A stretch of 64,000 nucleotides of DNA from a virus (taxonomy: Duplodnaviria; Caudoviricetes): the IMG/VR virus record IMGVR_UViG_3300010366_000012, positions 11,012-75,011 of that record; one strand, 5' to 3'. Below are positions 32,351 through 64,000 of this stretch, piece by piece. The translations under genes and the position numbers were made by a program. A model generated the notes under the pieces. It was not told the DNA's origin and did not search any database. It saw only the letters and a list, made by a program, of their open reading frames with translations. Each line of letters begins with the position of its first letter. Position 1 is the first letter of the stretch.

Positions 32351-33169
32351 ATGGCAGGGTTCGGGATCGACTACTCCTACGGGCAGGGCCTGACCACGGC
32401 CCAGATGCACCGCGGCGGGGTCACGTTCGTCTGCCGGTACCTGGCCTACCTGCCCAACGGCAAGTGCATCAACAAGGCCGAGTTCGACAACCTGGTGAAG
32501 GCCGGGATCAAGGTCGTGCTGGTCTGGGAGCAGGACGGCCGGGACTGCATGGGCGGCCGGGCGCGCGGTGTGGCCCACGCCCAGGAGGCTGCCAAGCAGG
32601 CGCACGCGCTGACCGGCAGCAACGAGGCTGTCATCTACTTCGCGCCGTGCGATTTTGATGCCGCGCCGGGAATGCAGCCGCTGATCAACGGCTACCTGGA
32701 CGGGGCCGCCAGCGTGATCGGGCACGGCCGGACCGGGATGTACGGCGGCTTCTGGCCGCTGAGCCGGGCACTGGACGGGCGGCACGCCGCCTACGGCTGG
32801 CAGACCTATGCCTGGAGCGGCACCAACCTGGACCGCAGGGCCAGCCTGTACCAGTACCACAACGGGGTCAGGTTCGGGCCTGCTGAGGTTGACTACGACA
32901 AGTCCTTCCACGACGATTTCGGCCAGTGGCCCCGCCCGCATGCAGCCCCGGCCCCCGCGCATGCGCCCGCTGCGCCCGCCAAGCCGCCCGCCTTCTATGA
33001 GCACACCGCCAACGGGACCGACACCTGGGCCGAGATCGCATCCGGCCGGAACATGCAGCCGGGCAGCTTCGCCGCCGAGCAGTGGGAGCTGGGCCAGGAC
33101 ACGGCCAACAAGCTGTTCGGCTCTTTCGTGCCGCCTGCGGGGGCGAAGTACCGGACTAAGCACCCGTGA
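32351..33169 (+). CDS. endolysin, DUF1906/GH25-like glycoside hydrolase with C-terminal LysM-like domain
   Basis: GIDYS, FVCRYL, GMYGG, WQTYAWS, YQY, VDYD motifs (alternative start 32330). Confidence 0.85.
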   Translation: MAGFGIDYSYGQGLTTAQMHRGGVTFVCRYLAYLPNGKCINKAEFDNLVKAGIKVVLVWEQDGRDCMGGRARGVAHAQEAAKQAHALTGSNEAVIYFAPCDFDAAPGMQPLINGYLDGAASVIGHGRTGMYGGFWPLSRALDGRHAAYGWQTYAWSGTNLDRRASLYQYHNGVRFGPAEVDYDKSFHDDFGQWPRPHAAPAPAHAPAAPAKPPAFYEHTANGTDTWAEIASGRNMQPGSFAAEQWELGQDTANKLFGSFVPPAGAKYRTKHP

Positions 33170-53071: not shown

Positions 53072-54115
53072 TCAGCTGCCCCACGGCGGCTGCCCTGGTG
53101 CGCCTCCCATCCCGGGAGCCTGCTGCGGCGGTCCCTGCGCGGGGGCCTGCTGCGGCGGCATGCCGTTGGCCGGTCCCTGCGGGTAGCCCTGCGGGGGCGG
53201 GGCCTGCTGGCCCTGCGCCCCGGGCGGCGGGGCGAACTGCCCGATGCCACCGGGGCCGGGGCTGGCCTGGTTGTAGGTGCCCGGCTGCGGCGCATAGCCG
53301 CCCTGCGGCGGGCCGCCCTGCGGCGGGGCCTGCTGCGGGCCGGGGCCGGGGCCGTAGCCCTGCTGCGGGCCGCCCACAGCCTGTGGACCGGGCTGTGGAC
53401 CGGGGCCGGGAGCTGGCGCATACCCGCCCGCGGCCGGGCCAGCCTGCGCAGCCTGCGCGCCCTGCGCGGCCAGGATGCGCTTGACCTTGCTGCCGTAGTC
53501 GTCGTTCTTGACCCGCAGCATGACCGGCTTGTTCAGCATCATCTGGGCCACCTGCTCCTGGGTGATGCCCTGGTGCCAGTAGGGCACCTGCTGCGGCACG
53601 CCGGAGAACTTCTCGCCCACCGGGATGCCCATCGCGTGCAGCTCCCCGAACAAGATGCCCATCCCGGCCTTGTTCTCGGTCTGGTCGTTCTTGTACGGGC
53701 TGATCACCCGCGGCGTGGTGATCTTGGACCCGGCGTGCGGGCCGCCGTCGAACACGAAGGTGATCGTCCAGCCCATCTTCGTGCCGTCGTTGCTCGGCCC
53801 CCAGACCGACTCGATCGCGTGCCCGGGGTAGGTGCCCTCCTGGTAGTTGACCCCGGTCGGGTCGCCCATGTTGTAGTAGGCGTCCCACTCGGCAGGGCTG
53901 CCCGTGCCGGGCGATGCGCCGTACTGCGGCGCTCCGTACTGCTGCTGCGGTGCCCCGTAGCCTGGCTGCCCGCCGTAGCCGGGCTGCTGCCCGTACTGCT
54001 GCGCAGGCGGGCCTGCCTGGCCGTAGCCGGGCTGCCCGCCGTAGGGCTGCTGCTGACCGTAGCCAGGCTGGCCCTGTGGCCCCTGCGGGTAGGGGTTCTG
54101 ATAAGGCTGTCCCAT
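53072..54115 (-). CDS. probable ssDNA-binding protein (DUF669-like core) with Gln/Gly/Pro/Tyr-rich tails
   Basis: EGTYPGHAIES core, V.ND.YG..VKRI; follows the AAA ATPase. Confidence 0.55.
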   Translation of the reverse strand: MGQPYQNPYPQGPQGQPGYGQQQPYGGQPGYGQAGPPAQQYGQQPGYGGQPGYGAPQQQYGAPQYGASPGTGSPAEWDAYYNMGDPTGVNYQEGTYPGHAIESVWGPSNDGTKMGWTITFVFDGGPHAGSKITTPRVISPYKNDQTENKAGMGILFGELHAMGIPVGEKFSGVPQQVPYWHQGITQEQVAQMMLNKPVMLRVKNDDYGSKVKRILAAQGAQAAQAGPAAGGYAPAPGPGPQPGPQAVGGPQQGYGPGPGPQQAPPQGGPPQGGYAPQPGTYNQASPGPGGIGQFAPPPGAQGQQAPPPQGYPQGPANGMPPQQAPAQGPPQQAPGMGGAPGQPPWGS

Positions 54116-58600: not shown

Positions 58601-59059
58601 CTAGAGGGTACCTGTTGGTTCCGACAGAACGGCCACACCGGCCGGGGGCAGGTTGCCCGACCGGATCAGATGGGCCGCCAGGTGCTGTGCTGCCGCTTGC
58701 GCGTCGTCCTTGCCCGGCACCCACCAGCCGAGGGCTTTCAGCACCTCAGGCGTGGCGGTGAGCCGCTCGCGCGGTCCCGGTTCGAGCAGCTGGCACCCGT
58801 TCTTCAGCGCCGCGCGCCGGGCCACTCCGCTCATTTCCAGCGCGAGGTGCGCGTGCGTCTGCGGCCTGCGGCGGTCGATCCGGTACTTCTCCAAGATCAT
58901 CAGCAGTGCCGGTCCCCACTGCTGGCAGAGGTGCTCGACATGATCACCGGCTTCGAGGAACTCGTACTCATCCGCGTAGAACGCCCGGCCCTGCTCCCAG
59001 CAGCAGGCCAGCCCGGTCATGCCACCGCTGTCGATGGCCAGCACGCATGGGGGCATCAT
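58601..59059 (-). CDS. RuvC-like Holliday junction resolvase
   Basis: VLAIDSGG.TG, LE, DDAQAA..H. Confidence 0.8.
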   Translation of the reverse strand: MMPPCVLAIDSGGMTGLACCWEQGRAFYADEYEFLEAGDHVEHLCQQWGPALLMILEKYRIDRRRPQTHAHLALEMSGVARRAALKNGCQLLEPGPRERLTATPEVLKALGWWVPGKDDAQAAAQHLAAHLIRSGNLPPAGVAVLSEPTGTL

Positions 59060-60837
59060 GTCTTGACCCACCTCCCGGGCAGGATCTCGCCGGACCAGGT
59101 GAGCGGCAGCCGGTAGTTTGACCGGTCAGTCAGCACCTCCTGGGCGGCGTGCAGCACGTCGCGTGCCAGGTGCTTCGGGCAGGCCAGCAGCAGCTCGTCA
59201 TGCACCGGCAGCCGGAGGAACTCACCGATCCCGGCCGCATCGCAGGCGATGGCCCCGCGTTTGAGGTTCTCCGCGGCGCTGGATTGGATCTCGTAGTCAA
59301 TCCCGGCGTACTCCCGGCCCCGGTCCACGAACAGCCGCCTGCCCATCAGCGAGTAGACCGCGGGCCTGCCCTTGCCGTACTTGATCTTCTTCACCAGCTT
59401 GTTCGAGCGCATGGCCAGGGTGTGGTAGCGCTGCTTGAACCCGCGGTAGATCGGCTCCAGCTGCTCGACCGACACGCCCGCGGTGACCGCGGCTGTCTCC
59501 ATGCCGGAGCCATAGACCGTGGCATAGGCCGTGTTCTTGGTGGTCGGGTAGCGCGGGTCGGACTTGGCCACCTCTTCGCGGTAGATCTCGCTGGCCAGGT
59601 TGACGAAGAATGACCGCCCGGTGGCATCGCACATGGCGAAATCGGCTATCAGCTGCGCGTCCCCGCTGATGTGCGCGGCCAGCCGCATTTCGATCTGGTC
59701 GGCGTCGATGGTGATCAGCGCCTCATCCTCGCCGGGCACGTAGCTGCCGCGGACCGCTTCCACGATCCGGTCGAACTGGTGCATCGGGGGATCGGTGACC
59801 GAGCTGCGGCTGGTGCGCTGCGCGCCGATGGTGTGGATCGAGTAGTGGATCACATCGTCGGCCCCGGCCATCCGCAGGAACTTCTCCAGGTACTTGCCGA
59901 CAATGCCCTGGCCCTTTTTGGCATCGCGGATGGCAGCCAGCAATGGCGCGGCATGCGGGTAGTGCGCCTGGTATTCCAGCAGCACGTCCTTAGACACCTG
60001 CGGCATGCCCGTGCCGGTGCGGTAGAGGATTGGGACCCCGGCCGCTTCAAGAGCCCGGCCGACCTGCTCATTGGAATCGACCGAATTGATGCCCCACTCG
60101 CCGCGCAGCCAGAACATGGCGCGCTCGGTGAATGCGGTGATCTTGTCAATCCACTCGTGGATATAGGGCCGGTCGATGCGCATGCCCGCATTCATCATCG
60201 ACGCGCATATCGCGGCGTACCGCAATTCCATGTCGTAGACGTTGATGTACTGCCTGGCCTCACCCCAGTGCTTGTCAATCAGCCAGCTGGTCAGCACCGG
60301 GTCGGCTGCGCCATAGCGCCAGTATTCGGGCAGGCTGTCCGGCACCGTGGCCCAAGTCCATTTCTGGGCCTTCATGGCCTCTTTCAGCTCGCGCTCCCAC
60401 GCCGCGGCGGTCGGGTCAACATCCCGGCTCGCCCGCGTTTTCAGGTCGAGCGGGGCCGCGCTATCGACCAGGTGGCTGATCAGCTGGGCGTCATCGAGCC
60501 GGGAGAAGTCCAGCTGCAGCCCGCCCTGGTGATGGATCACCCGCTGGTCATAGTCCATGTTGAACATGCCCAGCCGCCCCGGCCACTTATCCAGCGCTTC
60601 GAGCGCGGGGCCGAACCACTGCGGGCCGAATGCCCAGCCATGCCGCTTGTCACCAAGCTGGATCATGCGCAGCCGGTCTTTGTAAGGCGACAAGCCGCTG
60701 CTCTCGGTGTCGCAGCAGACCATGCCGTCATGCCGCTCGCCCAGCCAGCGCCAGAACTCGCCCAGCGTCTGCATGTCTGATACCCGGTGCAGTCCTACGC
60801 TGTCGAGCACGCCGCCCCTCGGCAGCACTGCTGTCAT
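59056..60837 (-). CDS. polA: family A DNA polymerase with 3'-5' exonuclease
   Basis: CDTESSG (ExoI), DADQIEMR (motif A), KNTAYATVYG (motif B), VHDEL (motif C); RBS AGGGAG before ATG 60837. Confidence 0.95.
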   Translation of the reverse strand: MTAVLPRGGVLDSVGLHRVSDMQTLGEFWRWLGERHDGMVCCDTESSGLSPYKDRLRMIQLGDKRHGWAFGPQWFGPALEALDKWPGRLGMFNMDYDQRVIHHQGGLQLDFSRLDDAQLISHLVDSAAPLDLKTRASRDVDPTAAAWERELKEAMKAQKWTWATVPDSLPEYWRYGAADPVLTSWLIDKHWGEARQYINVYDMELRYAAICASMMNAGMRIDRPYIHEWIDKITAFTERAMFWLRGEWGINSVDSNEQVGRALEAAGVPILYRTGTGMPQVSKDVLLEYQAHYPHAAPLLAAIRDAKKGQGIVGKYLEKFLRMAGADDVIHYSIHTIGAQRTSRSSVTDPPMHQFDRIVEAVRGSYVPGEDEALITIDADQIEMRLAAHISGDAQLIADFAMCDATGRSFFVNLASEIYREEVAKSDPRYPTTKNTAYATVYGSGMETAAVTAGVSVEQLEPIYRGFKQRYHTLAMRSNKLVKKIKYGKGRPAVYSLMGRRLFVDRGREYAGIDYEIQSSAAENLKRGAIACDAAGIGEFLRLPVHDELLLACPKHLARDVLHAAQEVLTDRSNYRLPLTWSGEILPGRWVKT

Positions 60838-60871
60838 TTCCCGTCTCCCTAAATTGCCTGCTCCATCATCC

Positions 60872-63800
60872 ATGCCTGCCATGCCATCCCCAGCCATGCC
60901 GGGCCGAGCCAAACCAATCCGCTGCGGTCCTGGCCTCGCCTTGCCCCTCCCCGCCTGCCACGTCTGACGCCGATGGTAACCGAGAGCCACGACAAGCCGC
61001 GCCTGCCCCGCCAAACCGGTCCCGCCCAGGCCCCGACGCACCTAGCCCCGCCTGCCATGCCATGCCTACCCGAGCCCTGCCGAGCCCTCGCGCACCTAGC
61101 CCTGTCCGTCCTGCCGAGCCCTGGCCAGCGATGCCCAGCCGTGCCACGGCCACGCCATGCCGATCCTGCCTGCCCTCGCCTAGCCCCGGCCATCCTGTCC
61201 CGGTCCCGCCATGCCTGCCGGGCCTTGCCGAGCCATGACCAGCAACGCCCTGCCATGCCCAGCCTGCCCTGCCTAGCCGCGCCGTGCCGTGACCGGCCAA
61301 CCCTAGCCTGTCCTGGCATGCCGAGCCGAGCCACGGCTAGCCGCGCCCGTCCTGCCTTACCGGGCCTTGCCGGTGCCTGCCCCGCCAGGCCGCAGCTCGC
61401 CGTGCCTGCCTGGCCGAGCCACACCATGGCCGTCCTAGCCGCGCCACTGCTAGCCAACCCACGCCTGCCGAGCCGTGCCCTGCCTGACCTTGCCCCGCCA
61501 CGACGGTGCGGGCCGGGCCAAGCCACGCCGAGCCTGCCACAGCTCGCCTGGCCATGCCGGTGCGCGCCTGGCCATGCCGTGACCAGCCTCGCCTGCCTGG
61601 CCAAGCCCAGCCCTGACTCGCCCTGCAGCTCCCTGGCTGCCGAGCCGGGACTTGCCTCCCCGCGCCCAGCCACAGGCCGCCCCGCCTCGCCACGCCTGCC
61701 TAGCCATGCCGGACCCAGGCCCCCACGCCCAGGCTAGCCTGCCGTGCCGAGCCACGCCGTCCCGCGCCAACCCACAGCCTGCCTTGCCCCGCCAATCCTG
61801 GCGTGCCGAGCCACGCCGGGCCGGTCCATCGCCTGCCCTGCCGGTCCTGCCTCGCCATGCCAACTCGCGCCGCGGCACGCCTCGCCTGGCCCGGACAGCC
61901 CTAGCCTGGCCGCTCCTGGCGTGCCACGCCATGGCTGTCCCAGCGGTGCCATGACCTGCCGAGCCTGCCTCGCCTACCCGCAGCCCGCCAAGCCGACGCT
62001 CGCCATGCCTCACCTGCCGAGCCCCGCCCTGCCTGGCCATCGCGCGCCAAGCGCTGCCGAGCCAAGCCGACCCGGGCCACGCCCCGCCTGCCCTGCCAGA
62101 GCGCGCCGGAGCCTGCCACGGCACACCGGGCCATGCCTGCCCTGCCCAGACTCGCCTCAGCCTGCCCAGAGCTGCCCTTCCGGTGCCTGCCCTGCCTGCC
62201 TAGCCTTGCCTTGCCATCGCATGACTTGCCACGCCAATCCTGGCGGGCCATGCCCGGCCGGTGCGACCCGGGCCAAGCCACGGCCATCCCTGCCATGGCT
62301 GCCCGGCCACGCCACTGCTTGGCTTACCGGTCCTTGGCAGTCCTCGCCCGCCCTGGCCACGACTGCCCTGCCGCGCCTTGCCTGGCTTGCCTTGCCATGG
62401 CATCGCAAACCGAGCCTCGCCTCAGCACCCCGCGCCAGTCCTGCCCAGCCCCGCCAGAGCGGGCCAATGTCTGCCTAGCCCCGCCACGCCTGCCGGGCCT
62501 TGCCATGGCATGGCTCGCCAAGCCGCGCCGGGCCATTGCCCGCCTGCCTCGCCCCGCCTCAGCGGGCCTTGCCGTGGCCAGCCAAACCAAGCCTGGCGGG
62601 CCATGCCGCGCCGTGCCAAGCCGAGACTTGCCCACCCGGGCCGAGCCCTGCCTTGCCTGCCATGCCGAGCCCTGCCGAGCCTAACCCTGCCGTGCGGTGC
62701 CGAGCCAAGCCAATCCTGCCCGGCCAGTCCCTGCCAGTCCTGTCCACGCCTAAGCCCACCTAGCCAGGCCGACCTGCCGATGCGCTGCTTGCCTTAGCCC
62801 GCCGAGCCAATCCTGGCACGCCGAGCCCTGCCGTCCCGAGCCGTGCCTACCCTAGCCCTGCCGAGTCGCGCCTGCCCCGCCTGGCCATGCCTTAGCTATC
62901 CTCGCCACGCCGCTCCCCCGCGGGCCATGCCTTGCCTGCCTTGCCGAGCCTGTCCCAGCCAGGACCGGCCAAGCCACGCGCTGGCGTGCCCCGCCTTGCC
63001 TGCCAAACCTAGCCCCGCCGAGCCGCCGCCGAGCCAACGCCCGCCAGTGCCTTCCGCGCCTCGCCTGCCATGCCTCGGCCGCCCTTACCACGGCTCGCCA
63101 TGCCTTCGCACGCCTGCCCTGGCCTGCCTTGCCACTCCGCGCCCTGCGAAAGCGGGCCTAGCCGATCCTGCCCTGGCGGGCCGGGCCTTGCCGAGCCTCG
63201 CCCGCGCACGCCGTGCCCAGCCTGCCCTGCCCTTGCATACCGGGCCGAGCCCCTGCGGACCCATCCATGCCGACCCCCGCCTTGGCACTCCCCGCCTGCC
63301 AGTCCCCGCCCCGGCGCACCTCGCCATGGCGCACCACGACTAACCCACCCGAGCCCTGCCTGCCGCGCCCGTCCTGGCGTGCCACCCCAAGCCTGGACCG
63401 ACCCGACCCGTCCCATCCCCGCCGACCCTTGGCCCGCCGCTCCCCGCCTGCCGTAGCTTGCCGAGCCTCGCCTACCCAAGCCCCGCCGACCCATACCATG
63501 CCTGCCCGGACACGCCCATGCGCACCGAGCCTTGCCAACACGGGCCGCGCCAAGCCAACGATCGCCAAGCCCTGCCTGCCTCGCCATAGCGAACCTCTGC
63601 TGGCCGCGCCTCGCCCAGCCAAGCCTGCCACGCCAAGCCTCGCACCAGCTCGCCTCGCCTCACCCGGCCCGTCCTGCCGCGCCAGCCCACGCCGAGCCCG
63701 GCCATCGCAAGCCATGGCGATCCTGCCGGGCCAGTGCCGCGCGGGCCTCGCCCCGCCGATCCCTGCCTGGCTCGCCGTGCCTAGCGTTAGCTCGCCCCGC

Positions 63801-64000
63801 CGTCGCGCGCCGCGCCATGCCCGGCCTGCCCGTCCCGGCCACGCCGGTCCCTTGCACACCGCCGCAAGCCCAGCCGTAACAAGCCCACCCATGCCCTGCC
63901 TGCCACGCGCCGCCTCGACTAACCTCGCCAGGCCCCGCCTTGGCGCACAGAGCCTGGCCATTCCTGCCTTGACGGTCCCTGCCGAGCCCTCGCTGGCCGA
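60872..64000 (-). repeat. array of ~55 units of (GGY-NN)n pentamers separated by GGCA tetramers; candidate guide-RNA array (VIPR-like), truncated at the window edge
   Basis: + strand parses as [NN-GCC/ACC]x8-15 then TGCC/TGGC; all 16 NN dinucleotides are used; several units decode to known protein motifs. Confidence 0.9.

Follow-up and report, generated by a model that had tools for sequence, protein, structure and literature searches.

A long VIPR-type guide array of a soil actinophage-like virus matches conserved motifs of DISARM and other defence-type genes

The right end of a 64,000-nucleotide stretch of virus DNA (the window; bases 11012–75011 of the 75,011-bp linear IMG/VR record IMGVR_UViG_3300010366_000012, GC ~70%) is filled by a run of pentamers, each made up of a GGY part and a variable dinucleotide (NN). 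What does such a run encode, and what do its variable dinucleotides recognise? We find that it has the form of a staggered array of guides of the Viral Interference Programmable Repeat (VIPR) type, and that at least four of its guides match codon positions 1 and 2 of the most conserved motif of a gene family. By homology of the matched genes, the four families are DrmA of DISARM, a superfamily 1 (SF1) helicase encoded in a methylase operon, a type I-like N6 methylase, and UvrD/GajB-type helicases. The array is laid out as follows:

60868–64000, minus strand: staggered vrRNA-type array of GGY-NN pentamers, about 54 guides with 4-base separators

VIPR systems comprise a small RAMP protein (Vipr), an accessory gene, and vrRNAs of 9–16 YNNGG repeats (10.64898/2026.04.26.720920). 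The NN dinucleotides of the vrRNAs recognise double-stranded DNA with one base skipped between them, and it is "overwhelmingly" the wobble position of a codon that is passed over; either strand can carry the target, and binding represses transcription (10.64898/2026.04.26.720920). The VIPR preprints describe Vipr as a minimal RAMP/Cas7-like protein of ~20 kDa encoded beside the guides, and structures have been reported (10.64898/2026.04.26.720927). A first-pass annotation of the window, made from the letters, had read the NN dinucleotides of the array as the first two positions of codons and proposed a wobble-skipping targeting code. The NN-x register fits all the natural matches described below, but as a code it had already been published, as the 1-nt skip rule of VIPR (10.64898/2026.04.26.720920).

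Guides and the gene families that they match

Guides were converted to NNx patterns, with one skipped base after each dinucleotide, and scanned against IMG/VR, JGI metagenomes, and GTDB genomes. Four guides gave targets:

61470–61534, minus strand: guide of 13 NN; its + strand reading, DVLWFPTGGGKTE, is motif I of the DISARM helicase DrmA
63227–63296, minus strand: guide of 14 NN; its + strand reading, LLIGDPGQIDPFTP, is motif III of a ~450-residue SF1 helicase
63379–63448, minus strand: guide of 14 NN; its + strand reading, VTNWRRRHPDFPAP, is an N-terminal segment of actinomycete N6 DNA methylases
63905–63964, minus strand: guide of 12 NN; its vrRNA-sense reading, [IM]HSAKGLEYDGV, is motif VI of UvrD-type (GajB-like) helicases

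With its ambiguities, the 61470–61534 guide decodes as [DE]VL[CW][FL]PTGGG[KN]T[DE]. Its 11-NN core has 10 exact matches in IMG/VR, all in frame at DLLWFPTGGGKTEAY in proteins of 1000–1300 residues, and all 10 proteins are DrmA by PADLOC (E 1e-192 to 0 for five of them). The full 26-base pattern is matched exactly 116 times in GTDB species-representative genomes, where ~3e-4 matches would be expected by chance (26 fixed bases, 596 Gb, both strands). Every one of the 125 sites with at least 25 of 26 matches lies in codon phase 0, and all 116 matched open reading frames (ORFs) encode DrmA homologues by blastp against validated DrmA, with a median identity of 29%. Among the matches listed, many are in actinomycetes (Actinomadura, Nonomuraea, Nocardia, Streptosporangium), and Chloroflexota, Acidobacteriota, Firmicutes, and haloarchaea are also represented. 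On a rough reading of the listed exact matches, Streptosporangiales and Nocardia look over-represented relative to Streptomyces. We assign these targets to DISARM DrmA from the homology of the single gene. The first-pass annotation had expected such guides to be portable across hosts, and the matches bear this out: species as far apart as actinomycetes and haloarchaea, 116 in all, have the identical 26-base pattern in DrmA genes whose products are only ~29% identical.

The 63227–63296 guide decodes as LL[IM]G[DE]PG[HQ][IM][DE]P[FL]TP. Its 10-NN core has 21 exact matches in JGI metagenomes, 21/21 in phase 0, and 19 of these fall at one position ([AV]LIGDPGQIDPFV, around residue 164) of a single SF1 helicase family (AAA_11/12/19/30); at the SF1 helicase sites the full guide fits 22–24 of 28 bases. 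The same core has zero matches in IMG/VR, and the full guide, with up to three mismatches allowed, found nothing in 301 Actinomycetes genomes. The helicase gene is the last in a conserved operon of soil metagenomes, which consists of a DNA methylase (434 residues), a small unnamed gene, p368, p476, and the helicase (451 residues). PADLOC 2.0 does not recognise this operon. We regard it as a candidate uncharacterised defence system resembling restriction-modification (R-M). At one locus the operon adjoins a gene for a RES-domain toxin.

The match of the 63379–63448 guide, decoded as VT[KN][CW]RRR[HQ]P[DE][FL]PAP, is to a methylase gene of an actinomycete genome. In all, 26 of its 28 bases (VSNWRRRHADFPAP) fit codons 24–37, in phase 0, of a 644-residue N6 methylase of Nocardia sp. 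FBN12 (N6_Mtase PF02384, E 3e-34; PADLOC MTase_I, E 6e-150), and the reversed-pattern control gave 0 matches. A homologous methylase of Mycolicibacterium elephantis, encoded 2.5 kb upstream of drmA, carries a 22/28-base version of the site. The core of this guide has zero matches in IMG/VR. In Nocardia sp. FBN12 (contig C1, 4668774–4672368) the N6 methylase gene is followed by that of a 522-residue Ser/Thr kinase fitting the PD-T4-6 and mad6 models; the pair may be a MADS-like or Pgl-like defence module.

The 63905–63964 guide was first flagged by recurrent near-matches beside drmA loci (five at 19–20 of 24 bases, against 0.03 in shuffles). Its 10-NN core has four exact matches in IMG/VR, 4/4 in phase 0, at TIHSAKGLEY[DE], and the full guide fits 21–23 of 24 bases at these four sites. 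Two further matches at 21/24 were found in actinomycete genomes, against 0 for the control. The best PADLOC models for the targets are GajB and RTasHel, in a model set that has no housekeeping UvrD/PcrA model.

The first-pass annotation had also held that the guides pair with the coding strand, at NN-x-NN-x aligned to codons. The alignment is seen throughout, every counted DrmA, SF1 helicase, and UvrD-type site and the methylase site being in phase 0. The strand claim does not hold throughout, since the 63905–63964 guide reads as sense on the other strand. For the four guides with targets, the matched genes are of defence or R-M type and not virion genes, as had been anticipated.

Six other core patterns (20–22 fixed bases) gave 0 matches in the large collections; the match counts are thus no property of the search itself, and the background is bounded. 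The four decodings singled out at first pass, at 61470, 62245, 63227, and 63379, are all present, and their coordinates coincide with independently parsed guide boundaries. They also exceed chance: in 3000 permutations of the NN units, the three GxGK[ST] decodes of the array compare with a mean of 0.045, and the GxxGxGK[ST] decode has P = 0.0017. One of the three GxGK[ST] decodes is a reverse-strand reading of the 63379 guide and is probably coincidental. Natural targets were found for the 61470, 63227, and 63379 guides and none for the GxxGxGKT guide at 62245, which is one of two motif-like guides without a target match:

62245–62299, minus strand: guide of 11 NN; + strand reading G[IM]RG[DE]G[KN]T[HQ]L[IM], Walker A-like; no target match
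62387–62441, minus strand: guide of 11 NN; vrRNA-sense reading LAVDES[FL][IM][IM]KN, which by eye resembles SNF2 motif II; no target match

The 62245 guide has zero exact matches in IMG/VR or JGI metagenomes, and its 5 matches at up to three mismatches in 121 genomes are below the reversed-pattern control (~14). No matches to the 62387 guide were found in IMG/VR or in five actinomycete genomes, and none to the core of the 62019–62088 guide in the collections searched. When all guides were compared with ~1 Mb of DrmA-containing loci, only 61470 and 63905 rose above shuffles. In the phage's own genome no guide match exceeded background; the + strand NN composition correlates with sense codon positions 1–2 of the phage's own genes (r = 0.42), with no correlation for antisense or other frames.

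Architecture of the array and its relation to VIPR

The + strand from 60868 to the record end is a run of NNGCC pentamers, and the minus strand reads GGY-NN. A GCC-to-GCC spacing of 5 is dominant (204 intervals), and within the window this periodicity is confined to the array. Dynamic-programming parsing places a phase slip of −1 base every 45–75 bases, each marked by a 4-base unit GGCA, sometimes GCCA, and divides the visible 3.1 kb into ~54 guides, mostly of 8–14 pentamers and with lengths of 5n+4. Of 562 parsed units, 370 (66%) have the canonical GGY, and NN usage is nearly flat. The array runs off the contig end, so the visible guide number is a lower bound (>3.1 kb, at least 54 guides). 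No long consistent reading frame was found within the array, no promoter-like or terminator-like sites in the array region, and no Rfam families, hammerhead included, in the array.

In "staggered" VIPR arrays, successive vrRNAs overlap by 1 nt (10.64898/2026.04.26.720920, fig. S18 legend). The 5n+4 lengths of the phage array correspond to successive guides that are offset by 1 nt and joined without a tail or ribozyme, and in this it resembles the staggered arrays as that legend describes them. It is like VIPR also in having phage-borne guides of GGY-NN (YNNGG) pentamers of comparable unit number with variable NN, in the 1-nt skip rule with the skipped base on wobble positions, and in having targets on either strand. 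It differs from published VIPR in its great length and in that those of its guides with targets match conserved motifs in genes of defence or R-M type; furthermore, no Vipr or vap gene is seen beside it, the contig ending within the array.

Among phages, the Type II VIPR of Escherichia phage SUSP1 is likewise phage-encoded and uses the same recognition code. It consists of four separate vrRNAs of ~100 nt, each with a ~40-nt structured 3' tail, whereas the guides described here are tail-less and set apart by 4-base GGCA separators only. Cluster F mycobacteriophages (Brocalys, Donkeykong, Quico, and Florinda) have the same GGCNN unit and GGCA separator, in the early region and on the gene strand, but their arrays hold only 3–6 guides, between genes for hypothetical proteins of 171 and 248 residues. 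The Brocalys array lies at 32505–32752 of NC_031262, and that of Donkeykong (NC_051648) has two more guides. The Donkeykong array is annotated as protein gp48, probably a mis-annotation.

Vibrio phage ICP1 reportedly carries a phage-encoded CRISPR-Cas system aimed at the host anti-phage island PLE, which would likewise be an RNA-guided system of a phage directed against a host-side defence element. The ICP1 system is said to combine contiguous, acquired, element-specific spacers with a nuclease; the phage array has a gapped code, a presumed repressive action, and guides to family-wide protein motifs.

Possible uses of the array

We favour, with reasonable though far from complete confidence, the reading that this is a VIPR-type staggered array with which a soil actinophage-like virus silences defence-type genes carried by its hosts or by elements that live in those hosts. 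Transcription from the minus strand would yield a chain of GGY-NN pentamers, which would then be cut at each GGCA unit. If the published mechanism applies, Vipr protomers would coat each guide, hiding the GGY bases and presenting the NN bases, and the guide filament would bind double-stranded DNA in a 2-of-3 register and block transcription. The targeted defence-type genes would in this way be silenced, and because the motifs are invariant and the wobble bases are ignored, one guide could work across very divergent homologues and hosts. That the array silences host immunity is what we infer from the genes its guides match.

Targets named in the VIPR preprints are satellites, prophage regulators, other VIPR loci, and REP decoys; defence genes are not among them. 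Relative to these preprints, the conserved motifs of defence-type genes are a new target class, from which we infer an aim at immune genes. Known phage counter-defences are mostly proteins, each of which blocks one system. If the silencing reading is right, a programmable RNA array that reads conserved amino-acid motifs would give a phage a general means, easily extended, of disarming many hosts. VIPR, whose known role lies in fights between mobile elements, would then also act directly against host immunity. The decoded guides could also serve as a catalogue, in that those without a target, together with the methylase-p368-p476-helicase operon, may point to undescribed defence systems. A broader proposal, which we put forward tentatively and rate somewhat below an even chance, is that long phage VIPR arrays are broad-spectrum RNA-guided anti-defence arsenals, with dozens of guides, each directed at the invariant motif of a different immune family. 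These families would include DISARM DrmA, R-M or MADS-like methylases, helicase-methylase systems, and UvrD/GajB-type helicases, and with the wobble bases ignored a single guide would fit homologues of less than 30% identity in different phyla. Such arsenals would add a class of counter-defence and a class of VIPR target.

Several points weigh against silencing of defence-type genes. Repression of transcription would leave in place the defence proteins already made at infection, so that it is not clear what a lytic phage would gain. The SF1 helicase operon does not count among the recognised defence systems and has only weak MkoA/MkoC similarity, and the UvrD-type helicases matched by the 63905 guide may be housekeeping genes. 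Targets were found for only four of the eight guides tested, which were selected mostly for looking like motifs. In the 400 kb around both targets of one Nocardia genome, the 61470 and 63379 guides rose above shuffles and no other guide did. Finally, no Vipr (RAMP) or vap gene was identified in the 75-kb record, which ends inside the array, and a look-up for RNA data covering the stretch listed none.

The matched genes could instead be of interest to the phage as cargo of its competitors: the guides would then serve conflict between mobile elements, being aimed at prophages, integrative and conjugative elements (ICEs), or satellites that carry DISARM, Gabija-like, or R-M modules, and so would cripple rivals. 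Published VIPR targets (satellites, prophage regulators, and other VIPR loci) are of this kind, and 10 DrmA and 4 UvrD-type matches lie on contigs classed as viral by IMG/VR. Against this, the exact DrmA matches come for the most part from chromosomal contigs, in 116 species, the matched sites are family-wide motifs and not element-specific sequences, and among the few guides tested none was found to match a virion, integrase, or regulator gene. We consider an exclusive aim at rival elements unlikely, with perhaps a chance in the region of one in a handful.

Less probable still, and in our judgement quite doubtful, is a solo array with no effector of its own (VIPR-null), which would borrow or titrate the Vipr of another element in the cell. 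It would account for the lack of a vipr gene in the record, and orphan vrRNA loci have been reported in phages (10.64898/2026.10.15.759431); such borrowing or titration is described for orphan vrRNAs of satellites and phages. Searches for an effector were negative: Pfam and PHROGs scans of ~35 phage proteins revealed no RAMP, the neighbours of the array being orphans, and the Pfam RAMPs profile PF03787 had no match over the whole record. A basic 144-residue neighbour found only itself in a homologue search and gave only sub-threshold rows in the ESM Atlas, and its AlphaFold 2 (AF2) model was unusable (pLDDT 37). PDB sequence searches with four effector candidates were empty, and tblastn of the mycobacteriophage array-neighbour proteins against the phage genome yielded nothing. 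Contigs from two soil metagenome runs, among them one of 4,093 nt from the first run and one of 16,075 nt from the second, continue past the right end of the window, one assembly by 2.8 kb and the 16,075-nt contig by 11.7 kb; the failure to find a vipr gene is uninformative because the record is cut inside the array and the sister assembly extends at least 11.7 kb further. More than 54 guides at conserved coding motifs are also unlike decoys, published decoys being aimed at REP repeats.

That the run is a low-complexity pentanucleotide repeat or a repetitive coding region, its motif readings being post hoc chance, is hardly credible: ORFs of 100–280 residues do lie on both strands of the array, gp48 is annotated over the array of Donkeykong, and the motifs were recognised by eye, but the frame shifts by one base every 45–75 bases, and exact gapped in-phase matches of 20–26 bases fall in single gene families (116 against ~3e-4 expected) while other patterns have none. 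For the four guides with targets, the database matches refute chance.

A second soil sample contains a close variant of the phage in which 61471–61591 (the 61470 and 61539 guides) is replaced by 111 other letters and 61640–61733 by 159 other letters. Whole guides are thus exchanged between closely related phages, as one would expect if the guides are modular. The two soil variants differ by 12 substitutions in NN against 10 in GGY, with no clear concentration in NN.

Genes and sequences around the array

Proteins encoded in the window include a terminase, a Mu-type portal, a family A DNA polymerase, an SNF2 helicase, and a PD-(D/E)XK nuclease (Pfam/PHROGs). The polymerase gene is the immediate neighbour of the array:

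59056–60837, minus strand: family A DNA polymerase gene (Pfam DNA_pol_A, E 4e-32); ribosome-binding site and ATG start read

Like the array it is on the minus strand, and 30 bases separate its start codon from the last array unit, which lies upstream. No terminator was found in the gap between array and polymerase (60837–60868), and the array abuts the polymerase ribosome-binding site; since no terminator separates the two, guides and replication genes may share one transcript. Two loci of relatives that were found through the DNA polymerase have no array, and the genes flanking the array had no blastn match among phages.

Farther to the left, 53072–54115 (minus strand) encodes a 347-residue protein with a short globular core between long Gly/Gln/Pro-rich low-complexity arms and with no family match. 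Both ends of the record are incomplete, although its completeness is estimated at 96%. The left end (bases 1–1100 of the record, outside the window) begins inside a DUF5906 primase/helicase-type gene; next comes an AT-richer spacer of 290 bp in which motifs containing CTGCGCA recur.

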